In this document: positions 3,086 through 13,200 of the stretch, one piece after another
Layout: each line of letters starts with the position of its first letter
How positions within the stretch are numbered: position 1 is the first letter of the stretch
DNA from: Bacterioplanes sp.
Lineage (GTDB): Bacteria > Pseudomonadota > Gammaproteobacteria > Pseudomonadales > Oceanobacteraceae
Assembly: GCA_014859445.1 (NCBI GenBank)
Contig: JACUUC010000046.1
Location: 1-13,200 of the forward strand
Reading direction: 5' to 3'
Length of the DNA: 13,200 nucleotides
Position numbers and translations under genes: made by a program
Notes under the pieces: generated by a model
The model's input: only the letters and a program-made list of their open reading frames with translations
Told to the model about the DNA's origin: nothing
Databases searched by the model: none

Positions 3086-3979
3086 CTACTCCAAAAAGCG
3101 CTGCCGGATAGCCCCGCTGACTGCGGTCAGTGGCACGATGATGCTTAGCTCATAGGCCAAGCCAAAATCCTCATCCAAGGCGGCATCGTCGAACCAGATG
3201 CCGTTGCCCACACTTAAATACGACTGCAAAATGGGCGGCAGACGGCAGCCATAGAGCTTGAGCAGTTGCTGCAACTGCCGGATACGCCCGTCTGGGCTCA
3301 ACTCTGCCCAGCCACGGCACTCCAGCGTATGTGCTACCGCGTAATTCAGGCCGGTTTTTGCCATCATCATCGGCTGCGTCGGGGTATACAGCTGCTGGCA
3401 AAACTGCACCATGCAGGCAATGGCTTCTTGACCCAGACTTTGATAGAGCGAAACATTGCCAAAAAAGTACTGCAGCTGTGGGTGGATACGGGCTAAAGCT
3501 CCCAGCCCGGCCCATAACGCAAAGAAACCCAGGACACGGGCCTTAGCACTGGTATTGACCACCGAACGGCCCAGCTCAATGCCATAGGGCAACACCTGGC
3601 TGCAAAAAGCCTTGCTGTAATCAAACAGCTGGCTGGTACGTAACAAGGCATGGCCATGCTGTGCTGCTTGCCATCCTAACTGGTAGCGGTAAATAGCCAC
3701 CAACTCCAACCTAGCCGGATCCCACACCAGCAACTGGTAATAGGCATGTTCACCATAATCCAGTGCGTCCAGATCACGCGCCAGATTACGGCCGGCACCG
3801 GCACTGCGAAACATCAATTCGCGTAAACGGCCAATCTCCAGCATAGTCACTGGGATCCTATCTGCCTGAGCGCTGAATACCAGCAAACCACGAATGCTGG
3901 CAATGGGTTCAAGCTGTGCCAGCTCCTGTGCAATCAACTTAGTCGGCTCGGCGGCTGCAACTGGGCTTACCATCGGCAT
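3086..3979 (-). CDS. GNAT-family N-acyltransferase, OlsB/GlsB-like ('putative hemolysin' COG3176 type)
   Basis: ATG 3979 is preceded by AGGAGGA at 5 nt, inside the 3' end of the upstream gene (41-nt overlap). Motifs: IGRLRELMFRSAGAG..DLDALD..HAYYQLLVWD...LVAIYRY, and later ..IELGRSVV...LWAGLGAL...YFFGNVSLY. These are typical of N-acyl amino acid synthases that pair with a PlsC-like O-acyltransferase. Confidence 0.75.
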   Translation of the reverse strand: MPMVSPVAAAEPTKLIAQELAQLEPIASIRGLLVFSAQADRIPVTMLEIGRLRELMFRSAGAGRNLARDLDALDYGEHAYYQLLVWDPARLELVAIYRYQLGWQAAQHGHALLRTSQLFDYSKAFCSQVLPYGIELGRSVVNTSAKARVLGFFALWAGLGALARIHPQLQYFFGNVSLYQSLGQEAIACMVQFCQQLYTPTQPMMMAKTGLNYAVAHTLECRGWAELSPDGRIRQLQQLLKLYGCRLPPILQSYLSVGNGIWFDDAALDEDFGLAYELSIIVPLTAVSGAIRQRFLE

Positions 3980-5549
3980 CGGGTTCCTCCTGATAAATAG
4001 TGGGTAGTTGATAGCAACGGCGTTTCAACCAGGCGATACGCTGCCGATCGGTTTCGGCCAGAGCGTCCAGTTCGACGACATGCATCGGAATATCAACATA
4101 CAGTCGAGGTGTACGGTTGGCTGGCTTTAGCATTTCCCGTACCAGCAACAGCATTTCCAGATTGGCCTGAATACCCAGACTGGTTCGTAGCCAGGCCAAG
4201 GTATAGAACCAAGTCGAATTCTGACTTTGCAGATGCAACACGGTCAGACTGCGCTGCTGGCGCCTGGCCAATGTCACCGTCAACTTGGACCAATTGCCAT
4301 CGTCCAACTGACCTTTGTTGCTCTTTCTGGCCGTGCGACCAGCCGGAAAAATCAACAGAGGGGCGTCGCTGGCAAAAGCAGCCTGAACCATTGGCAGCGC
4401 ATCTTTAGGCTTGGCAAATACCGGGATCGACACAATGCGCCCAGCCAGCTGCTGCACTTCGGTCAGTACTTCGTTGGCCAGTACCTGCAAATTTGGATAA
4501 CGCTTTTGCAGTACACTGATCAGCAACAAGCCATCAATGCCACCGGTCGGATGGTTGCAGACAAACACCGGCCGGTCTGCAGCTGCCGGCCAGCGGCAGG
4601 CGATGACGTCCGGAGTTAACTGCAAATGCTGCAGGGCTACATCACAAAAGCGCTCAACCGGCAGCCGGTTGAGCCGCTCCAACCTCTGATTTAACGCCTT
4701 TTCCGCCAACAGCCAGCGCAGCAAATCCCACTGCCAGCCTTTTAGTTGGCTGGCTAGCGTTGGGTTATAGCGGCTAAGCAGGGCCTGCACATCCAACCGG
4801 CTGCTAAAATAGTCTTCGGATACTACAGGCTGTTTCAGCGGCAGTTCCAGGCAGTGGCTGGCATCCACCTGATGGGTGGACGGATGCCCATCCCAATACT
4901 GCATACTAATCTTGCCTGCTTCGATAGTCAGTTGTGTGATACTGACGGTCTGTACCTGGCTACGCTGCATGGCAATGCCGCTAAAGGCGCTGAATGGTCC
5001 GGGCCGGCGATGCAGTTGCTGCTGGGTTTGCAGTGACGGTGAGCGGGCCATAGCCCGCTGCCAATGCCAGGCTCTGAGCCTCGGGATCACCCTAGGTAAA
5101 ACACTGGAACTGGATAACGGCGAGTTTGGTGCCAGCTGCTGACGAAGCTGGCTGCCATCCCAATGCCACAGCAGCGGCTCCTGTTGTCCAACAAAGAGCA
5201 GCAAGCGAAAAGGGGCATAGCAGCGTAACTGCTCTGGTTGCAATGAAGCGTCCAGCATTTGCCAGTCCGAGCTATGCGCCAGTGCCCGTAGAAGCAGACC
5301 ACGACTGCGGCGGATAGCGGCATCCGGCTGATACGCGGCAGCATAATCGTTGAGCAGACAAAACACCCGGCCTTGCTCATTGGCCGCTACCCAGCTGCCA
5401 CCACCGTCTGGATCGATGGGGATGACGGCGTCCACACCGTTCTGACTAAAGCGCTGGGGCGCATGCGCCCGGGCGCGGATTTTTCGCTCATCCCGGTTGA
5501 ACAGGATATGCAGCTGTCCTTGCTGGTACCACCAGCTTAGGGTGCACAT
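3939..5549 (-). CDS. Fusion protein: N-terminal NRDE (TANGO2-like) domain plus C-terminal lysophospholipid/aminolipid O-acyltransferase (GlsA/OlsA-like)
   Basis: Continuous 536-aa ORF. Residues 1 to about 235 carry MC(2)TLSWW...ILFNRDER...DPDGGGSWVA...RSRGLL...YAPFRLLLF, the NRDE family signature with the N-terminal Cys. Residues about 245-520 carry ..WDLLRWLLAEKALNQRL.., CNHPTGGIDGLLL (acyltransferase His/Asp block) and LLIFPAGRTARK (FPxG(T/R) block). The start overlaps the DinB gene by 13 nt. Confidence 0.75.
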   Translation of the reverse strand: MCTLSWWYQQGQLHILFNRDERKIRARAHAPQRFSQNGVDAVIPIDPDGGGSWVAANEQGRVFCLLNDYAAAYQPDAAIRRSRGLLLRALAHSSDWQMLDASLQPEQLRCYAPFRLLLFVGQQEPLLWHWDGSQLRQQLAPNSPLSSSSVLPRVIPRLRAWHWQRAMARSPSLQTQQQLHRRPGPFSAFSGIAMQRSQVQTVSITQLTIEAGKISMQYWDGHPSTHQVDASHCLELPLKQPVVSEDYFSSRLDVQALLSRYNPTLASQLKGWQWDLLRWLLAEKALNQRLERLNRLPVERFCDVALQHLQLTPDVIACRWPAAADRPVFVCNHPTGGIDGLLLISVLQKRYPNLQVLANEVLTEVQQLAGRIVSIPVFAKPKDALPMVQAAFASDAPLLIFPAGRTARKSNKGQLDDGNWSKLTVTLARRQQRSLTVLHLQSQNSTWFYTLAWLRTSLGIQANLEMLLLVREMLKPANRTPRLYVDIPMHVVELDALAETDRQRIAWLKRRCYQLPTIYQEEPDADGKPSCSRRAD

Positions 5550-6028
5550 CGTTTGTGATACTCTTGGGTCGAGCTGTGCACACCGGCATCCTCTGGCCAG
5601 GGGTAGCCCCAGGGATCCAGCATGGCATGGATCAACGCCAGATGATGCACTGCATGGCTGGCAACAAAATCCAGCTCACGCTGCAGGCTGGTGTAGGTGG
5701 TGCCTTCGGCAAATTGATAGCTCAGCTGGGTATCCAGCTCATCGGTTTCCAAGCACTTCAGCCAGCTTTGCAAACGCTCTATCCAATGCAACGCTTTTTG
5801 CGGATCGCTTTGCACGCCTTCATCTCGCAACCGCAGCCGGTAGTCCAGCTGCTGACTGTTCGATGCCAGCCACAGCTGCTGGTAGTGATCCAACACATGA
5901 CGAATATGTTTGCCGACTGAAGGCTCACCGGGCCAGTCTTTGACCTGCCGGTAATGTTCAGGCTGCACCTGCCGTAGAATAAGACGGATAAAGTCCAACT
6001 GGTGCAGGTTTTGTTCAATCACCGTCAT
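5537..6028 (-). CDS. DinB-fold (DinB_2/YfiT-like) putative metal-dependent protein
   Basis: 163 aa. The N-terminal helix motif VGKHIRHVLDHYQQL and the C-terminal FVASHAVHHLALIHAML fit the His-triad pattern of the DinB superfamily. It overlaps the upstream gene by 14 nt and the downstream gene by 13 nt. Confidence 0.7.
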   Translation of the reverse strand: MTVIEQNLHQLDFIRLILRQVQPEHYRQVKDWPGEPSVGKHIRHVLDHYQQLWLASNSQQLDYRLRLRDEGVQSDPQKALHWIERLQSWLKCLETDELDTQLSYQFAEGTTYTSLQRELDFVASHAVHHLALIHAMLDPWGYPWPEDAGVHSSTQEYHKRCAP

Positions 6029-6263
6029 GCGATTCTGTCCTTTGAATGGTTAAATCGTTTAGCCGCTGTTTGGCGGCACTGTAACTGGCGACCGAGAAGG
6101 GCACCAAGTAATTCAGTAGGATCAGGCCAAAGCGCCAGGGTGCTTCACCGGCAATAGCTTCCCATTGATTGATTAGGTTCAGCAAAGTCCCCACCACAAG
6201 TGCCACCTTAATGGCATTGCTGAACACCTCGGGATGGCGTAATTGTTGCAAAAAGTCTTTCAT
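6015..6263 (-). CDS. Small two-TM membrane protein, NrtS-like (putative nitrate/nitrite transporter family)
   Basis: 82 aa. IKVALVVGTLLNLINQ...LILLNYLVPFSVASYSA resembles the remembered NrtS family signature. There is an ATGA start/stop overlap with the HD-GYP gene. The functional assignment is tentative. Confidence 0.5.
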   Translation of the reverse strand: MKDFLQQLRHPEVFSNAIKVALVVGTLLNLINQWEAIAGEAPWRFGLILLNYLVPFSVASYSAAKQRLNDLTIQRTESHDGD

Positions 6264-7183
6264 CCGCGAGCAAACCTGACCAGTTGTTCCAGCGGGATAT
6301 GCGACACCGACTCCTCAATCAACCGCTTAATTAATAGTTTATCTGCTTTAGGTTGCAGTTGCTGGGCCGAAACCTTGCGACCGGTTGGCTTGACCGTCCA
6401 TTGGTCGTGCTCAGCACACAACTCCATCTCGCTGTGACAGACACCACAAGCCAACAGATCACCCGGTTTGTCCTCGCTGTGTTGCAGTACCGTCGGACCA
6501 CAGTGCGGACAGGTGTGCAAGGGAATGCCATAATCACTGTGCCCCATAATGGCATCCACTTCACCTCGTTCAGCCAACGCCAGCAAATGGTTGCACCAGA
6601 ACTGGTTAAACTGTCGGCCGGACTCCTCACGCAGAATACCAAGCACTTTTTCCAATGGCATAGGTTTGCGGTAGGAGCGTAAACTGGTCATGGCATCAAA
6701 GGCATCACATACCCCGATGATGGCCGCATCGGTTGGGATCATGCTGGCAGTCAGGCCATGCGGATAGCCACGACCATCCGGCCGCTCGTGGTGCAACTCG
6801 ACCGCAGCGGCGACCAGATGCCCTAGCGGATGCCCTGCCAGCATGCGGCCACCAGCCTCCGGGTGCGTTTGGATCACAGCAAACTCACTGTCATTCAACT
6901 TGCCGGTCTTATTTAAAATTGCATCTGGGATGGCGACTTTGCCCAGATCATGCAAAAAACCGCCGAGCGTCACCCGGGCAATATCGGCCTCCGGCAAACC
7001 ACCGGCTCTGGACAATAAATTGGCATAACGCGACACCCGCCACAAATGTCCGCCGGTGTAGGGATCTTTGGCTTCCACAAACCAGGCCATCACCATCAGA
7101 CTGGCCAACAGATCTTTGCTTAACTGACCGGCATCCGCCGGTAACGCTTTTTCTGCTTGAAACTGTTGAAACCATCTGAGCAT
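6260..7183 (-). CDS. HD-GYP domain c-di-GMP phosphodiesterase with C-terminal CxxC...CxxC zinc-ribbon extension
   Basis: ATG 7183 is preceded by a GGGGG SD at 5 nt. Motifs: GGFLHDLGKVAIPDAILNKTGKL (HD), HHERPDGRGYPHGL (GYP), VCDAFDAMTSLRSYR. The C-terminal extension carries HTC225PHC228...AC246GVC249HSEMELC256. Confidence 0.85.
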   Translation of the reverse strand: MLRWFQQFQAEKALPADAGQLSKDLLASLMVMAWFVEAKDPYTGGHLWRVSRYANLLSRAGGLPEADIARVTLGGFLHDLGKVAIPDAILNKTGKLNDSEFAVIQTHPEAGGRMLAGHPLGHLVAAAVELHHERPDGRGYPHGLTASMIPTDAAIIGVCDAFDAMTSLRSYRKPMPLEKVLGILREESGRQFNQFWCNHLLALAERGEVDAIMGHSDYGIPLHTCPHCGPTVLQHSEDKPGDLLACGVCHSEMELCAEHDQWTVKPTGRKVSAQQLQPKADKLLIKRLIEESVSHIPLEQLVRFARG

Positions 7184-7210
7184 GATAGCCCCCTGTTAAG
7201 TTAACCCTGC

Positions 7211-7663
7211 TTATCTTTTTGCGTGAATCTTCAAAAGCTTAGCAAAAGACTCCCGCTTGACTGCATCGGCCAGATCATCTTTGCAAAAATACAGCACTGT
7301 ACCAGCCTGTCCGGGCTGGGCTGAACCAATCACCTGGCCAGCGGCAGCAATGGCTGCCGCTGCGTGATGCTGCTGCATCAGATGCAAAATAGTCTTTTGC
7401 ACCCGCTCCAATGGCAGCAAACTGGCAAACACCACCGGCAGGCTTGGCTTAAGCTGACGTATTGCCAACAGCATCTCTTCGGCCGACTGCGGCAGCGGCG
7501 ACGACAAAGCCAAAGAAATAACGGCAACATCGGCGTTGGCCAGTTCGTCATTCAGCGCATCCAGCTGTGACAGACGGTTAAAACTAAAACCCTGCTGCTG
7601 CAGAAAAGGAGCCATCTCACTAACAATAAAAGGATGGGGCCTGGCAAGTAAAATATGTGGCAT
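7211..7663 (-). CDS. Hypothetical protein (150 aa), first gene of the operon; possibly a receiver-like alpha/beta fold lacking the acidic pocket
   Basis: ATG 7661-7663 has TAGGAAAAA upstream, and the gene ends 27 nt before the HD-GYP gene. I recognised no family signature. The alternating hydrophobic strand/helix pattern (HILLARPHPFIV.., DVAVISLAL.., LPVVFASLL..) loosely resembles a CheY-like fold, with Ser where the phospho-Asp would be. Confidence 0.5.
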   Translation of the reverse strand: MPHILLARPHPFIVSEMAPFLQQQGFSFNRLSQLDALNDELANADVAVISLALSSPLPQSAEEMLLAIRQLKPSLPVVFASLLPLERVQKTILHLMQQHHAAAAIAAAGQVIGSAQPGQAGTVLYFCKDDLADAVKRESFAKLLKIHAKR

Positions 7664-7757
7664 GATTTTTCCTAAGGTTGAATTGTAGTTGCATTGTGCT
7701 GCAAACTGCTTAGGCTAAAGGATTCATTAATCTTAGGAAGTTCTGCTGCGTACCACA
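7664..7757. promoter_or_regulatory. Divergent promoter region between the six-gene operon and the AraC-family gene
   Basis: 94 bp between divergent ATGs. It contains a TACAAT -10-like hexamer on the minus strand (7687-7682) and the inverted repeat TTGCA-N6-TGCAA (7689-7704). There are three CTTAGG/CCTAAG copies (7671-7676 inverted, 7709-7714, 7732-7737). Confidence 0.4.
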
Positions 7758-7793
7758 ATGACCAAAACACCGGCCTTATCTACCGAAACACCA
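7753..7793 (+). promoter_or_regulatory. Direct-repeat pair of the ACCAAAACACCG motif overlapping the AraC start codon (candidate operator/activator site)
   Basis: CCACAATGACCAAAACACCG (7753-7772) matches 11898-11917 at 18/20 positions. A degenerate second copy, ACCGAAACACCA, lies at 7782-7793, exactly 21 bp downstream. This is the same spacing as copies 1 and 2 in the bufA/trx intergenic region. Confidence 0.55.
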
Positions 7794-8678
7794 GAAGCCT
7801 TAGAACAGTTATTAGCACAATTGGCTTTTGGCTCGGAGCTGCATTTTGAGTCTGGCTTTTGTGACCACTGGAACCTGCTCACCACCAAATCCAGCAAAGC
7901 AGCCCTTCATGTGGTGACGCAGGGCCAACTTTGGATGGCGATTCCTGGTCGGCTTCAGGAACAAGTGCTACTGGAAGCCGGCGATGCTATTTTTTTCAGC
8001 CACAGTTTCCGGCATTGGCTAAGCGACGAGCCAGTGGATGAACACACCAGCGAAGTCGACTTTGCCAACTTCTGTGTGCCCAATCATGTTGAACGTGGTC
8101 TGGTCTGCTACGACATTGCGGTCGAATCCCCTCTCACCGCCAATCTGTTTCAGGTGATGCCGGACTACATTCACCTGCCTGCCAACCAGCAGTCCGGACG
8201 GCTCAGTCCACTGGTGCAACTAATCCAGCAAGAAGCCAAATCCCGTCAGCCTGGTTATCAGGCGGCTATCAGTCGCTTGAGCGATGTGGTGGTGTTGCAC
8301 TTGTTGCGTCAGGTGCTCAGTGACGACAGCATGCAACAAGGCCTGCTGGCAGCACTAAAAGATCCGGCGCTACGCCGGGTGCTACTGGCCATTATGGATG
8401 AACCGGGCGCTAACTGGACGGTGGAAAGCATGGCCGCTCTGGCTTTTTTGTCCAAAAGCGCCTTTGCCGAGCGCTGCCATAAAGTGATGGCTATGACTGC
8501 AAAAGCCTTGTTGGATAAGCTTAGGCTACAACGCTGCCGTTATCTGCTTATCCATACAGAGCTGAGTCTAGAACTCATTGCCGAACAAATTGGCTATCAA
8601 TCAGCAACGGCATTTATCCGCTTTTTTAAGCAACAAGAAAGCTTATCGCCCGGCGAATTCAGAGCATTGCATAACTAA
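7758..8678 (+). CDS. AraC/XylS-family transcriptional regulator with N-terminal cupin (AraC-binding-like) domain
   Basis: 306 aa. The N-terminal part (ALHVVTQGQLWMAIPG...LLEAGDAIFFSHSFRHWLSD) is cupin-like. The C-terminal dual HTH includes ..WTVESMAALAFLSKSAFAERCHKVM.. and ..LIAEQIGYQSATAFIRFFKQQESLSPGEFR. It is divergent from the 7663 operon. Confidence 0.85.
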   Translation: MTKTPALSTETPEALEQLLAQLAFGSELHFESGFCDHWNLLTTKSSKAALHVVTQGQLWMAIPGRLQEQVLLEAGDAIFFSHSFRHWLSDEPVDEHTSEVDFANFCVPNHVERGLVCYDIAVESPLTANLFQVMPDYIHLPANQQSGRLSPLVQLIQQEAKSRQPGYQAAISRLSDVVVLHLLRQVLSDDSMQQGLLAALKDPALRRVLLAIMDEPGANWTVESMAALAFLSKSAFAERCHKVMAMTAKALLDKLRLQRCRYLLIHTELSLELIAEQIGYQSATAFIRFFKQQESLSPGEFRALHN

Positions 8679-9241
8679 TCGCTGCCAGCTCCTCCTGTAG
8701 CGCGCGCTTCAGACAGTGAAAAGGATTTAACACGCTCAAACGGCAAGTGATCTCCTTCATCGGTACCATAATACGCCATACTAATACGTCCATTGCGGTC
8801 GATAAGAAAATCTGCTGGCATAGTGGTCATGCGGCCTTTGATGCCCAGCGGCAGATAACCGCGCATCATAGCTCTAAGCAGAGTCGGCATGCGTAATAGC
8901 ATGCCCTTCACCACGCCCAGCAGTGAATACTCAATACCGTATTCCCAGTAGAATTGATTGCTCTCATCCGCCAGCACCGCAAAAGGCGCTTTATGACCGC
9001 TCGCATGATGCTGCAGATTATCCAGCGGCGAGTCAAATACCGCGACAATAGTGAAGTCGTCGGCAAATTCATTGAAGCGGGACACTAATTCATGCATGCG
9101 CAGATTGCAAAACGGACAACTGGCAAAGCGAAAGAAAGACAGCATAAAAGGTCGCCCCTCCAGACTTCTCGTGTCAAACAGCTGGCCATCAAGTGCTGGC
9201 AACATGACGTGCGTCAGCTTATCTCCGGGTTGACGTTTCAT
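8675..9241 (-). CDS. Peroxiredoxin-like / AhpC-TSA (redoxin) family protein, CPFC motif, no signal peptide
   Basis: ATG 9241 is preceded by AAGGAG at 7 nt. It has a thioredoxin-fold signature: RPFMLSFFRFASCPFCNLRMHEL...IVAVFDS...FAVLADE...PADFLIDRNG. It is the last gene of the DUF2282 operon. Its stop codon overlaps the stop codon of the convergent AraC gene. Confidence 0.75.
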   Translation of the reverse strand: MKRQPGDKLTHVMLPALDGQLFDTRSLEGRPFMLSFFRFASCPFCNLRMHELVSRFNEFADDFTIVAVFDSPLDNLQHHASGHKAPFAVLADESNQFYWEYGIEYSLLGVVKGMLLRMPTLLRAMMRGYLPLGIKGRMTTMPADFLIDRNGRISMAYYGTDEGDHLPFERVKSFSLSEARATGGAGSD

Positions 9242-9286
9242 GACATAACTCCTTTTAGTAATTTTTAGTTAACTGCAGCTGAAGCA

Positions 9287-9823
9287 TTACGACCGTTTTT
9301 CAAGCCCCAGCCAGCGATCCAGCGAAAACAATCCTGGGCCGCGCGCGAGCAACATCAATAATAATGCCGCCCACCAGGCCGCAGGATTCCAAAAATGTGT
9401 CCAATCCGGATAAACGGCAAATTGAATAAAAAGGGTCATGCCCAGTAAACCCAATGCAGCAAAACGGCTAAATAGTCCCAGGATTAATAGCAATGGCAGC
9501 AGCACTTCCACCACACCTGCAGTTATTGCCATCGTTTCAGCCAGCCATTGGCCGAAAGCGCCCTCAGAGTATTCCAGCGTATCGGCATCGCACAATAACA
9601 AAGCACCGGGCCGAACAGGGTCCGGACAGAAAAATTCGTACATAAAAAGTTCGTATTTATTAACGTCAAACTGTAAAAAGCCATCCCATTTTGACAGGCC
9701 AGATTGTAAGAAAACCCGGGCCACCAACAAGCGCAACGCCAGCAAAGCAAGTGGCTCCAGCCAGCGCTGTAAAAACTGAGCTAATTGGTAGTAACGTGTC
9801 TGAATAGAAGTAACGAAAGTCAT
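9287..9823 (-). CDS. DoxX-family membrane protein (BufD/HvfX/GigT-like component of DUF692 RiPP clusters)
   Basis: ATG 9823 is preceded by AAGGAG at 7 nt. 178 aa with multiple TM helices. LALRLLVARVFLQSGLSKW is a DoxX signature. It sits immediately downstream of the DUF2063 gene (20-nt gap). Confidence 0.8.
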   Translation of the reverse strand: MTFVTSIQTRYYQLAQFLQRWLEPLALLALRLLVARVFLQSGLSKWDGFLQFDVNKYELFMYEFFCPDPVRPGALLLCDADTLEYSEGAFGQWLAETMAITAGVVEVLLPLLLILGLFSRFAALGLLGMTLFIQFAVYPDWTHFWNPAAWWAALLLMLLARGPGLFSLDRWLGLEKRS

Positions 9824-9843
9824 CAGTGGACTCCTTTAAAGCG

Positions 9844-10620
9844 TTAACGTATGCACAGCAGACCATGCTGTAACAACCCGGCAAAGCTGCCGCTGACATC
9901 GAAATGCTCATCCACCCTGAGAGCTGCAGATACCGCATCATGCAGGCAACAAGACTGAGTATTTAAAGCTTGCAGAAAGTGCCATTCTGCGGCAGACAAT
10001 ACCCGATACTGCAATGTATGATCGGCTTGTCGCCATAGCGCCCGACGGTTATGCTCTAAAGCAACCGTCGCCTGCTGCTGATAGCTGGGATCATCACGTT
10101 GCTGTACCCACAATGTCCAAACATCAAAATGCGTTTCAAGCAGTTCAACGCTTGAACACAATCCTAGTTTGAGCTTTTCAATATTGGTTCCCGCGTTGGC
10201 CAAATGCGAGATATCCTCCGCCGAAACTGCTTTTTGATCCTCGGCCAGCAAGCAATTCAGCCAACAACGTTCTAGCCTAGCCAGATCGCTCAACCACGGG
10301 CACTGATGTCGGGGCAACTGCGTTTGCAACCAATCAGGAAATTGCTGACCATACCAGGCCAGCACGGCATGCTCAGGCCGATGAATAAAAACATAATCTC
10401 TGGCCAATTGGCGGAACTGCTCGTCTGCCAACACCGAGCCACTGACAGGAAAGTTGTCAGCTAAAGCCTGCACTGATGCCTTCATGCTGCTGTTGCGATA
10501 CACTTGCAATCGTCGCCAATCTTCAGGTTTAGCTTGTAACCAGTGAGCCAGCGTGGTCTCAGCTTCACCTTGCAAATATGCAATAAACTGCTGATAAAAA
10601 TGAGGCTTAGCCTGCTGCAT
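9844..10620 (-). CDS. DUF2063-family protein (BufC/HvfC-type partner of the MNIO enzyme)
   Basis: 258 aa. The start overlaps the DUF692 gene by 14 nt. The N-terminal QQFIAYL...RLQVYRNS...L.DNFP region is typical of DUF2063. Its position directly 3' of DUF692 is the canonical pairing. Confidence 0.75.
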   Translation of the reverse strand: MQQAKPHFYQQFIAYLQGEAETTLAHWLQAKPEDWRRLQVYRNSSMKASVQALADNFPVSGSVLADEQFRQLARDYVFIHRPEHAVLAWYGQQFPDWLQTQLPRHQCPWLSDLARLERCWLNCLLAEDQKAVSAEDISHLANAGTNIEKLKLGLCSSVELLETHFDVWTLWVQQRDDPSYQQQATVALEHNRRALWRQADHTLQYRVLSAAEWHFLQALNTQSCCLHDAVSAALRVDEHFDVSGSFAGLLQHGLLCIR

Positions 10621-11479
10621 CTGCTATCTCCAGATAAGGTCGCAACACGGCATGAAGCCGCTCTCGCTCATTCAGTAAATCATCCAGAGCAGGAATACGA
10701 TCATCCCACTCCAATAACACGGGCCTCGGACCAAATCGCTGTAAGGCATAATCCAGTAAATTCAGGATGTCTTCTTGTGGTGCGTGATCGTGGCTATCAA
10801 TCAACAAACGATTGCCTTCAACCGGATCGGCTGAAAAACCTGCCACATGCAGCTCACCGACTAAATGCGCAGGGATTTGATCCAAATATTGCTTAGCATC
10901 CACACCACAATTGGTTTGGCTCAGGTATAAATTGGTTATGTCCAGCAACAAACCACAGCCGGTCCGTTGTGTTAACTCCACCATAAAATCAGCTTCATGC
11001 ATTTCATGCTGAAGCCCAACATAGTGGGTGGGGTTCTCGAGCAAAATAGCTCTGCCAATCGCTTCCTGATACTGATGTACTCCGTCCGCTAATTGCTGCA
11101 AGGCTGCCCGAGTTCGTGGAAAAGGCAATAAATCTGCAAAATATGCGTGCTGCACTCCTGACCACACCGCATGCTCAGAAATCAACGTTGGCTGAATGTT
11201 ATCTACCAGTGCTTTAACCCAAGACAGGTACTGAGTGCTGAGGGGTTCCGGCCCACCAAGAGAAGCACCAACACCATGTAGGCTAAGCGGAAATCGTTCC
11301 GCCATCGCCTGCAGAGCTGCCAGCCTAATTCCGCCGATGCCACAATAGTTTTCCGTATGCACTTCATACCAGATCCCTTTTGAAGCAACATCCAGTACCT
11401 CTGGATAGTGCTGAAGCTTAAGGCTTATACCAGTACTAAGCACGGATCCTGGCAGGCTGTTTGCGTTAAAATCTGCCAT
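10607..11479 (-). CDS. DUF692 / MbnB-like multinuclear non-heme iron oxidase (MNIO) RiPP maturase
   Basis: 290 aa. Motifs: GISLKLQHY...WYEVHTENY...PLSLHGVGASLGG...ISEHAVW...DLLPFPRT...AILLENPTHY...GCGLLLDITNLY...GELHVAGF...LIDSHDH...PVLLEWDD. This is the TIM-barrel DUF692 signature. Its start codon shares one nucleotide with the precursor stop codon (TGATG). Confidence 0.9.
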   Translation of the reverse strand: MADFNANSLPGSVLSTGISLKLQHYPEVLDVASKGIWYEVHTENYCGIGGIRLAALQAMAERFPLSLHGVGASLGGPEPLSTQYLSWVKALVDNIQPTLISEHAVWSGVQHAYFADLLPFPRTRAALQQLADGVHQYQEAIGRAILLENPTHYVGLQHEMHEADFMVELTQRTGCGLLLDITNLYLSQTNCGVDAKQYLDQIPAHLVGELHVAGFSADPVEGNRLLIDSHDHAPQEDILNLLDYALQRFGPRPVLLEWDDRIPALDDLLNERERLHAVLRPYLEIADAAG

Positions 11480-11844
11480 CAGGAGTTGTTACGATCCAGT
11501 TCAGATTTCGATGCCTGACCGTGTGGGGTGATGACATACTCGCAAACCCCTCTTGGAGTGAAAGTCCAAGCGTTGCCTTGAAAATCAATAGTTGATGAAC
11601 CTTCACAGCTAGTGCCAGCTCCGGCCCGGCAATCGTTCTGCCCCGCCAGGGCAATGCCATAGCATTTGTCACGGCGGCCCCGTACTCGCTCGCCGGCCAT
11701 CCATGTTTCAAAGTTTTGTTGCACCGCCTCAGGCGCATTTTCTGCCAGGCTAAGTTGAGCATTCGGTCCAGCCTGTGCCACACCCACAGCACTAGCCATA
11801 GCTACACCTGCCAGCAATAATTTGGTTAAGTTAGGTTGTTTCAT
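11479..11844 (-). CDS. DUF2282 / BufA1-type secreted Cys-containing RiPP precursor (bufferin-like metallophore)
   Basis: ATG 11844 is preceded by AGGAGA at about 7 nt. It has a Sec signal peptide ([25 protein letters not shown]|G). The core [43 protein letters not shown] carries four Cys (residues 61, 72, 80, 101; codons at 11662-11664, 11629-11631, 11605-11607, 11542-11544). This matches the DUF2282 pattern. Confidence 0.85.
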
Positions 11845-11897
11845 GTGTATTTCTCCTGTTGTGAATACACTTAAAGTCTAGTCAAGTCGTGCAAGAG

Positions 11898-11938
11898 CCA
11901 CACTAACCAAAACACCGCAGCAATCGACCAAAACACTT
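11898..11938 (+). promoter_or_regulatory. Two direct copies of ACCAAAACAC(CG) spaced 21 bp, upstream of bufA1 (candidate regulator binding sites)
   Basis: Copy 1 is CCACACTAACCAAAACACCG (11898-11917). Copy 2 is ACCAAAACAC (11927-11936). The core starts at 11907 and 11928, so the spacing is 21 bp. The sites lie 54-94 bp upstream of the bufA1 ATG. Confidence 0.55.
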
Positions 11939-11961
11939 TAACTACCACTGAACAAAACGAA

Positions 11962-11974
11962 CCGGTGTTTTGGT
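11962..11974 (-). promoter_or_regulatory. Inverted third copy of the motif (ACCAAAACACCGG on the minus strand), upstream of trx-ccdA
   Basis: The plus strand CCGGTGTTTTGGT (11962-11974) is the reverse complement of ACCAAAACACCGG, an exact 13-mer match to 7761-7773. It is embedded in the imperfect palindrome AACAAAAC-N8-GTTTTGGT (11951-11974) and lies about 91 bp upstream of the trx ATG. Confidence 0.5.
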
Positions 11975-12064
11975 GGATTCAACGGGTGCGGTGGTTAATG
12001 ACGAAAATCCTTATCTCTCTCACACTGGTTGGCGAATCATCCACAACCTGAAGAGGACTTCTTT

Positions 12065-12496
12065 ATGAAAACCATGATTAATGTCGCGATTGCAGTCATC
12101 TCCCTGGCTGCAGCCGCTTTTTTCCTGCTGAGCCCGGCCAATGCTTCCACCGAGCATCTGCTCAAACACAAACAAGCCTTTACTGAAACCTCGTTTCGGC
12201 AAGCGCAAGCTGAAAACCGACTGATTTTGATCGATGTGTATGCGCCCTGGTGCCCGACCTGTCGCCGCCAGCACACCGTTTTAAATGATTATTTTGCCCA
12301 CAACCCCAACAGCGACATCCTGGTGCTGCAAGTGGATTTTGATAACCAGAAAGACTGGGTCACTTACTTCAAAGCGCCACGTCAGTCAACTCTGGTGTTG
12401 TATCGTGGTGAAGAGCAACTTTGGTTCAGTGTGGCCCAAACCCTTGAAAGTACCATCTTTGCCGAACTGAAAAAACACGACCAGGGCGCGGACTGA
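12065..12496 (+). CDS. Secreted/anchored thioredoxin-family protein (WCPTC active site)
   Basis: The track ORF begins at TTG 12029. I prefer ATG 12065, with AAGAGGA (12051-12057) 7 nt upstream. It has a signal peptide (MKTMINVAIAVISLAAAAFFLLSPANA|S) and a thioredoxin motif (LIDVYAPWCPTCRRQ). Confidence 0.8.
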   Translation: MKTMINVAIAVISLAAAAFFLLSPANASTEHLLKHKQAFTETSFRQAQAENRLILIDVYAPWCPTCRRQHTVLNDYFAHNPNSDILVLQVDFDNQKDWVTYFKAPRQSTLVLYRGEEQLWFSVAQTLESTIFAELKKHDQGAD

Positions 12497-12498
12497 TT

Positions 12499-13200
12499 AT
12501 GGAATTTACCGCCATCCCACTGGCACTGATAGCAGGCGTGCTGAGCCTGTTATCACCTTGCGTTCTGCCGATGATACCGGCGGTTACGGCATCGGCCATG
12601 CGGGCATCCAAAACCGGTGTCTGGTTTTTGGCTGCTGGCCTCGCCTTTACCTTTGCTCTGGGTGGCTCTTTGCTGACCTACCTGCTGCTCAGCGCCGGTT
12701 TATCGCCCGATATTATGCGTACCTTTGCCGCAGTCTTTATGCTGGTGATGGGGTTGGTGCTGGTGGTTGGCTGGCTGAATCAGCAATTTAGTCTGCTGTT
12801 GTCACGCCTGACTAGCCGGTTACCTGCTGGCGGCCAGTTGGCAGACTCCTCAGACCGCCCAGTCTTTCAGTTTGTGATCGGTGGCTCTTTGGGCCTGGTC
12901 TGGCTACCGTGCGTAGGACCCACGCTAGGTGCTGCCATTGCGCTGGCATCGACCGGGCAGAATATTCTGATGTCGTTTACCGTCATGCTTGCTTTTGGAC
13001 TTGGTACAGCGCTGCCTTTAGTTGGTATAGGCTATGCCGCAGGCACAAAACTCAGCACCCTTCGCACTTCAGGCAAAGTTGGCAGATTGCTGCTCGGCTA
13101 TGCGTTATTACTGATCGCACTAATGATATTTACCGGCTTTGACAAAGTGATGGAGACGTGGGCTATTAAGCATCTTCCAGACTGGGCAACGACCATATAA
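12499..13200 (+). CDS. ccdA: CcdA/DsbD-family transmembrane thiol-disulfide electron transporter
   Basis: 233 aa and polytopic. The two hallmark Cys-Pro motifs are LSLLSPCVLPMIP and WLPCVGPTLG. It starts 2 nt after the trx stop codon, and the complete ORF ends with TAA at 13198-13200. Confidence 0.85.
   Translation: MEFTAIPLALIAGVLSLLSPCVLPMIPAVTASAMRASKTGVWFLAAGLAFTFALGGSLLTYLLLSAGLSPDIMRTFAAVFMLVMGLVLVVGWLNQQFSLLLSRLTSRLPAGGQLADSSDRPVFQFVIGGSLGLVWLPCVGPTLGAAIALASTGQNILMSFTVMLAFGLGTALPLVGIGYAAGTKLSTLRTSGKVGRLLLGYALLLIALMIFTGFDKVMETWAIKHLPDWATTI

Follow-up and report, generated by a model that had tools for sequence, protein, structure and literature searches.

What controls the region between the divergently transcribed bufA and trx-ccdA genes in the 13,200-nucleotide stretch of DNA analysed here (the window)? 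A sequence-only reading of this stretch had described three copies of a motif, ACCAAAACACCG, in that region, two in tandem and one inverted, and had proposed that through them one transcription factor co-regulates a RiPP operon and a periplasmic thiol-reductant pair, with the AraC-family protein encoded at 7758-8678 as the candidate. We followed the motif through the window and through related genomes, and find that its copies are, with good confidence, operators of that adjacent AraC-family protein, as judged from their geometry and genomic context.

Motif copies and their tandem pairing

The three copies lie where they had been reported (Table 1). The 9-mer CCAAAACAC occurs four times in the window against 0.30 expected, a count reached in 0 of 200 dinucleotide shuffles, and six occurrences of the 12-mer are found when up to two mismatches are allowed (1.35 expected; matched by 1 of 200 shuffles). 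The repeated motif is real and conserved. A fourth exact 12-mer, absent from the sequence-only reading, is located at 7761-7772, directly after the ATG of the AraC-family open reading frame, and has a partner with two mismatches at 7782-7793, again at a 21-bp period and within the first 12 codons of the gene. The inverted copy likewise has a degenerate partner that had escaped notice, 21 bp away at 11984-11999.

The three reported copies are parts of two back-to-back operators, P_buf and P_trx, with 24 bp between them. The proposal of shared control is supported as far as co-regulation goes, but the copies do not form a single unit: each promoter has a tandem pair of its own, independent of the other, so that co-regulation would proceed through two separate operators and not through one in common. 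The imperfect palindrome AACAAAAC-N8-GTTTTGGT, described earlier around the inverted copy, does exist in the window (11951-11958 and 11967-11974), but we dropped it as a conserved element because its left arm is not conserved in two loci that carry the buf operon (L003, L009) or in any buf-less locus.

Table 1. Motif copies, predicted operator and promoter parts, candidate regulator and predicted target operons in the window
Feature	Position	Strand	Basis or remark
Copy 1, ACCAAAACACCG	11906-11917	+	sequence match
Copy 2, ACCAAAACACtt	11927-11938	+	exactly 21 bp after copy 1
Inverted copy, CGGTGTTTTGGT	11963-11974		exact 12-mer reverse complement
P_buf operator (predicted)	11938->11902	-	
P_buf distal half-site, AAGTGTTTTGGTCGAT	11923-11938	-	includes copy 2; kept in 4/4 buf+ loci
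P_buf proximal half-site, CGGTGTTTTGGTTAGT	11902-11917	-	includes copy 1; block identity 0.90
P_buf predicted -10 hexamer, TAGACT	11875-11880	-	21 nt past proximal half-site
P_trx operator (predicted)	11963-11999	+	
P_trx distal half-site, CGGTGTTTTGGTGGAT	11963-11978	+	includes inverted copy; block identity 0.91, 14 loci
P_trx proximal half-site, GGGTGCGGTGGTTAAT	11984-11999	+	degenerate; block identity 0.72 vs spacers 0.35-0.45
P_trx predicted -10 hexamer, CACACT	12021-12026	+	block identity 0.85
P_div operator (predicted)	7793->7757	-	faces divergent orf150-HD-DinB-GlsA/GlsB-like operon
P_div distal half-site, TGGTGTTTCGGTAGAT	7778-7793	-	araC codons 7-12; found in 15/15 loci
P_div proximal half-site, CGGTGTTTTGGTCATT	7757-7772	-	spans araC ATG (as CAT) and codons 2-5; block identity 0.91
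P_div predicted -10 hexamer, TAAGAT	7730-7735	-	21 nt past proximal half-site
Candidate regulator, AraC family, Cupin_6 + HTH_18, RclR-like	7758-8678	+	Pfam
Predicted target operon 1 (buf)	8675-11844	-	Pfam, NCBIfam
bufA (DUF2282)	11479-11844	-	
MNIO	10607-11479	-	
DUF2063	9844-10620	-	
DoxX	9287-9823	-	
Peroxiredoxin-like	8675-9241	-	
Predicted target operon 2 (trx-ccdA)	12065-13200	+	Pfam, translation
Exported thioredoxin, WCPTC motif	12065-12496	+	ATG at 12065
CcdA/DsbD_TM	12499 to beyond window end	+	
Predicted target operon 3 (divergent)	3086-7663	-	Pfam, NCBIfam; ORFs overlapping or tightly spaced

A common promoter layout

Read toward the operon, the sites follow one layout: a 16-mer nGGTGTTTyGGTnGAT, 5 nt, a second such 16-mer, 21 nt and a hexamer TAnnnT. 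This layout occurs at three promoters in the window, P_buf, P_trx and P_div. The predicted -10 is recognisable at the promoters and a consensus -35 is absent; a sigma-70 promoter scan of both control regions returned no convincing full promoter. The missing good -35 fits dependence on an activator.

We propose that a dimer of the regulator would bind the two direct-repeat 16-bp half-sites, 21 bp apart, with the proximal half-site abutting the place of the -35 at promoters with a recognisable -10 but without a consensus -35, an arrangement that would correspond to classical class II AraC/XylS activation. From these sites, P_buf would drive the RiPP operon for bufferin, P_trx the genes for the exported thioredoxin and CcdA, and P_div the operon for DinB and aminolipid synthesis.

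In the I1-I2 site of AraC, a direct repeat with a 21-bp period overlaps the -35. When the hexamer is taken as -12 to -7, the half-sites predicted here fall at -70/-55 and -49/-34. The XylS repeats at Pm lie at -70/-56 and -49/-35 and those of FoxR at -62/-56 and -41/-35 (PMC9804782), while the site of Btr is a direct repeat abutting a weak -35 (PMC3333878). Like XylS at Pm, AraC at araI1-araI2, FoxR and Btr, our operators consist of two imperfect direct-repeat half-sites with a 21-bp period, and, as in the class II sites of these activators, the proximal half-site would abut or overlap the -35 of a promoter with no good -35 sequence; 16-mer direct repeats of this period are present at the three window promoters and in 33 instances overall. 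The predicted operators differ from all four systems in the half-site sequence, in the clustering of three promoters round the regulator gene and in the placing of one operator inside the regulator's own first 12 codons.

It is unlikely that the same protein, bound at these sites, works chiefly by repression, or in a dual role as AraC and E. coli RclR do, and not as a simple activator. The P_div operator does cover the regulator's start codon, where binding should repress araC, members of the AraC family are capable of either mode, and reduced E. coli RclR is reported to repress; against this, the sites stand upstream of a -10-like hexamer, in the place of a -35 whose consensus is absent, and their geometry is that of the activators XylS, FoxR and Btr. 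Binding, and activation rather than repression, are what we infer from this arrangement, as we do autoregulation and the signal discussed below.

Several other features of the control regions were considered. We rejected an ECF-sigma promoter reading, given that each promoter has two copies of the element at a 21-bp period and that no sigma gene was found among the window ORFs scanned. A leader hairpin of orf150 (CCTAAG...CTTAGG, 7664-7716, minus strand) over the ribosome-binding site was also set aside, its fold being no better than that of shuffled sequences (z = -0.75), and Rfam gave no known RNA family in the window. Upstream of araC, a conserved TTGCAT-16-TAGGCT is located at 7689-7716 on the plus strand, with the version TTGCAA-16-TAGACT in L012. 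It could be araC's own promoter, face to face with P_div, a speculative assignment since each hexamer matches the consensus at just 3 of 6 positions.

P_trx is degenerate in the window (11984-12026) and in the Alkalimonas amylolytica locus L001 (13628-13670) when compared with the other loci. The proximal half-site reads GGGTGCGGTGGTTAAT in the window, GGGTGCGGTGGTTGAT in L001 and CGTTGyTnTGGCTGAT in most other loci, with CGTTGynnnGGCTGAT as its form in other genera; the -10 is CACACT in the window and L001 versus TACACT or TAGACT elsewhere, and TAAAAT in L055.

Conservation across related genomes

A scan of a genome collection with the regulator protein gave 12 orthologous loci (75-95% identity) from Alkalimonas, Arsukibacterium, Alishewanella and Rheinheimera. 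Over 12-15 related genomes, identity is 0.7-0.9 in the half-sites and the -10 and 0.3-0.5 in spacers and flanks. Block identities were taken from site-anchored, ungapped alignments of 14 loci for P_trx and 4 loci for P_buf. For P_trx, they are 0.29 in the 5' flank, 0.91 in the distal 16-mer, 0.45 in the 5-nt spacer, 0.72 in the proximal 16-mer, 0.35 in the 21-nt spacer, 0.85 in the -10 and 0.40 in the next 20 nt; the corresponding values for P_buf are 0.35, 0.83, 0.53, 0.90, 0.37, 0.69 and 0.51. Phylogenetic footprinting, which had been suggested as a check, finds half-sites that are conserved between flanks free to vary.

The distal 12-mer core of P_trx, CGGTGTTTTGGT, is exact in 12 of 12 window-clade loci with trx, eight of which have no buf operon; the 14-locus set adds two more distant loci with a differing core. 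The plus-strand motif pair is found only beside bufA. We first counted the shared layout in 29 promoter instances from 13 loci, a set then extended to 33. TAnnnT stands at the exact +21 offset in 31 of these 33 promoters (in 4/4 buf+ loci at P_buf and 15/15 loci at P_div) against a background of 0.0117 per position, orthologous promoters being non-independent samples.

A tandem-pair weight matrix run over ~229 kb of related loci recovered only these promoters and two weak extra pairs; as controls, 4.6 Mb of shuffled sequence yielded 6 pairs and 0.75 Mb of unrelated loci yielded 1. The recovered sites were themselves the source of the matrix, so the scan shows specificity and is not an independent discovery. 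Within these ~229 kb the motif is not dispersed, which goes against its being a repeat unrelated to promoters. Unlinked members of the regulon were sought in metagenomes with the pattern GGTGTTTYGGT-N10-GGTGTTTYGGT, which matched 88 stretches. Most matches were perfect 21-bp satellite repeats or internal to open reading frames, a homolog of any window protein was found in 0 of the 80 loci examined, and the two most site-like contexts, L134 and L100, had uninformative ORF layouts.

The motif adjoins the regulator gene in every genome examined, buf-less ones included. In Idiomarinaceae it accompanies regulators of 46-63% identity, amid partly different neighbour genes. The layout, with its -10 offset, is kept in L053 (63% identity; P_trx and P_div), L055 (49%; P_trx) and L056 (82%; P_div). 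L052 (46%) has a 34-nt repeat with two cores at a 21-bp period, both in the araC 5' coding end and just past the stop codon, and in L054 (54%) the half-sites have drifted and the +21 hexamers are not -10-like. We note that the second pair of L052 (Idiomarina seosinensis, 8937-8973) is on the minus strand past the regulator stop, points into the regulator 3' end instead of toward the gene that follows, and lacks a -10-like hexamer at +21. The direct observations are the motif itself, its geometry and conservation, and the linkage between it and the regulator gene.

The candidate regulator

The 7758-8678 open reading frame carries HTH_18 and HTH_AraC domains and is the only transcription factor found in a Pfam scan of the window ORFs, and every locus examined shows its gene linked to the sites. 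The footprint, the 21-bp geometry and this linkage support the earlier proposal that an AraC-type factor encoded there would co-regulate the RiPP operon and trx-ccdA.

It is rather improbable that these are real operators but belong to another transcription factor, one whose gene lies elsewhere in the genome. Linkage to a regulator gene is circumstantial evidence; however, the sites flank the AraC-family gene on its 5' and 3' sides in every genome and have stayed there while the target genes were rearranged several times, they persist beside regulator homologs of 46-63% identity, a tandem direct repeat of 21-bp period is the typical site of an AraC/XylS dimer, and no other transcription factor was found among the window ORFs scanned.

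Assignment of the sites to the AraC-family protein raises the matter of its kinship. Its best NCBIfam match is RclR (NF040475; residues 47-302 against profile positions 38-276 of 284), at 95.8 bits (E = 2.8e-27) against an equivalog cutoff of 400 bits, so that we do not file it as RclR. BLASTP against E. coli RclR gave 28% identity over 256 residues (E = 1e-26), and the clade of homologs is narrow: 75-95% identity in Alkalimonas, Arsukibacterium, Alishewanella and Rheinheimera, 45-63% in Idiomarinaceae, then ~30%. Judged by these comparisons, RclR is the closest named relative of the regulator, and the regulator is no RclR ortholog.

RclR (E. coli YkgD) is an AraC-family activator that senses reactive chlorine and HOSCN, and is activated by oxidation of Cys21 and Cys89 (PMC7464077). 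The regulator has three invariant cysteines, C35, C106 and C117. Cys89 of RclR aligns with C117 and Cys86 with C106, while Cys21 is not column-aligned, lying 3 alignment columns from C35. The two proteins share the Cupin_6 + HTH_18 architecture, and their 28% identity is comparable to the 30% between the E. coli protein and P. aeruginosa RclR (PA14_07340), whose target is an adjacent peroxiredoxin gene (PMC7950407). Control of adjacent redox and copper-defence genes is likewise predicted here; E. coli RclA is a Cu(II) reductase (PMC7527725). Unlike RclR, the regulator stays at 95.8 bits against the 400-bit cutoff, has its C35 out of register with Cys21, and starts with an extension of 11-12 residues; its predicted targets are bufferin, Trx-CcdA and DinB/aminolipid genes, not rclABC or rclX, and no homolog of RclA, RclB or RclC is annotated among the window ORFs scanned. 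Since the regulator resembles a thiol-switch oxidant sensor, its inducing signal is likely an oxidant or thiol-reactive stress.

No published RclR operator or binding motif was found in the searchable literature. In the E. coli K-12 rclA-rclR intergenic region (L057, 4583-4612) we observe a direct repeat, TGATATTTTG-N10-TGATATTTTC, with a 20-bp period, which resembles the GGTGTTTTGG core. It could be an RclR operator.

A predicted operator within the araC coding end

Codons 2-12 of araC have a third-position identity of 0.774, versus 0.531 +/- 0.082 gene-wide (rank 2 of 290 windows), and an amino-acid identity of 0.82, under the gene mean of 0.844. Such high third-position with below-average amino-acid identity points to constraint at the DNA level. 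In the alignment, E. coli RclR and the homologs of ~30% identity start at the position of residue 12-13, so that MTKTPALSTETP would be an N-terminal extension of 11-12 residues, and it is encoded (7758-7793) by exactly the two half-sites. The TKTP/TETP repeat of this peptide mirrors the two DNA half-sites that encode it. There is no alternative in-frame araC start before codon 22.

The orientation of the araC-internal pair and the hexamer at +21 indicate that it serves the divergent promoter. Lying within the first 12 codons and over the start codon, the P_div operator, once occupied, would probably also dampen expression of the regulator itself.

Conservation of this pair (7757-7793) only for the peptide TKTP...TETP, with a coincidental likeness to the intergenic motif, is very improbable. 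The pair does lie in a coding region and orthologs retain similar residues, but the exact 12-mer has a chance expectation of ~0.002 in the window and is paired with a second site at the same 21-bp period, third-codon positions are unusually well conserved in a stretch whose amino-acid identity falls short of the gene average, neither RclR nor the distant homologs have the extension, and TAnnnT occupies the same +21 offset in all 15 loci.

Predicted target operons and the buf cassette

The first predicted target operon encodes the parts of a buf1-type gene cluster, namely a DUF2282 precursor with signal peptide and cysteines (four in the BufA translation), MNIO, DUF2063 and DoxX. In this it is like the bufferin operons controlled by SigF/NrsF or BvgAS, which are of the same cluster type (PMC11626156). 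SigF/NrsF, an ECF sigma system, and BvgAS are the regulators that the bufferin literature names for bufferin (buf1/gig) operons, and genes for ECF sigma and NrsF anti-sigma factors are frequent but not obligatory in Buf1 clusters (PMC12452194). Unlike these, the buf operon described here is predicted to be under an AraC/RclR-like activator; no Sigma70_r2, Sigma70_r4 or NrsF match was found with Pfam among the window ORFs scanned, and the terms 'AraC', 'thioredoxin' and 'CcdA' are absent from the main texts of the two bufferin papers searched.

The third predicted operon comprises orf150, HD_5, orf82, DinB_2 and genes for a GlsA-like acyltransferase (6e-47) and a GlsB-like N-acyltransferase (9e-50), both matches being to aminolipid acyltransferases. 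Two of its ORFs have no Pfam match, and the 82-aa one is NrtS-like by NCBIfam. Between genomes, orf150, HD and orf82 are present or absent, and the operator-to-gene spacing is kept.

Gene mapping places the buf operon between araC and trx in the window, in L001, in L003 and in L009, but in none of eight further loci, where trx-ccdA follows araC directly. Together with its own operator pair (8675-11938), it is a presence/absence polymorphism situated exactly between the araC stop codon and the P_trx distal half-site. The cassette is present in L001, L003, L009 and L056 and absent from L002, L004-L008, L011 and L012, and its presence varies even within Alkalimonas. The peroxiredoxin-like gene occurs in the window and L003 only. 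In L004, an Arsukibacterium metagenome-assembled genome that is buf-less at this locus, a distant MNIO homolog (30% identity) is encoded at 12739-13548, ~3 kb downstream of ccdA, and has no tandem operator pair beside it.

The exact placing of this polymorphism might suggest that the copies are a scar or repeat left by a mobile or recombination event, such as the ends of an inserted buf cassette, but this is extremely unlikely, as buf-less genomes have the identical P_trx pair, the araC-proximal cassette junction has no copy, a third pair lies 4 kb away at the araC 5' end, and every pair keeps a fixed 21-nt distance to a -10-like hexamer.

Discussion

The regulator appears to switch on three adjacent stress operons, for a copper-binding peptide, a periplasmic thioredoxin pair and lipid remodelling. 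The regulatory arrangement is solid but conventional: as the mechanism would be textbook class II activation of the AraC/XylS type, conceptual novelty is modest. What is new are the operator of this regulator subfamily, the composition of its predicted regulon, the operator in the regulator's coding sequence, and the cassette-like gain and loss of buf with its operator.

The analysis provides, at base-pair level, a model of operator and promoter for a regulator subfamily that is RclR-like and uncharacterised, and predicts AraC/RclR-type control for a bufferin cluster, bufferin operons having so far been tied to SigF/NrsF or BvgAS. It would place bufferin, Trx-CcdA thiol reduction, a peroxiredoxin-like protein and aminolipid synthesis in one predicted stress regulon, which echoes the connection between HOCl and copper of E. 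coli RclR and RclA. The presence or absence of the buf cassette with its own operator copy illustrates how an existing regulon can take up a RiPP cluster.

A more far-reaching reading, which we put forward tentatively and hold as a whole to be doubtful, is that an RclR-like thiol-switch regulator restricted to Alkalimonas, Alishewanella, Rheinheimera and Idiomarina runs a compact envelope-defence regulon enclosing its own gene. This regulon would include the reductant supply of periplasmic thioredoxin and CcdA, the aminolipid/DinB operon and, where the cassette is present, the copper-chelating bufferin, and a single stretch of 37 bp would serve at once as operator, as start codon and as code for the peptide, so that negative feedback would be built in. 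If this were true, bufferin production would here be a response to oxidant or chlorine stress and not an ECF-sigma metal response, and the RiPP cassette would have been plugged into a pre-existing regulon by means of its own operator copy.
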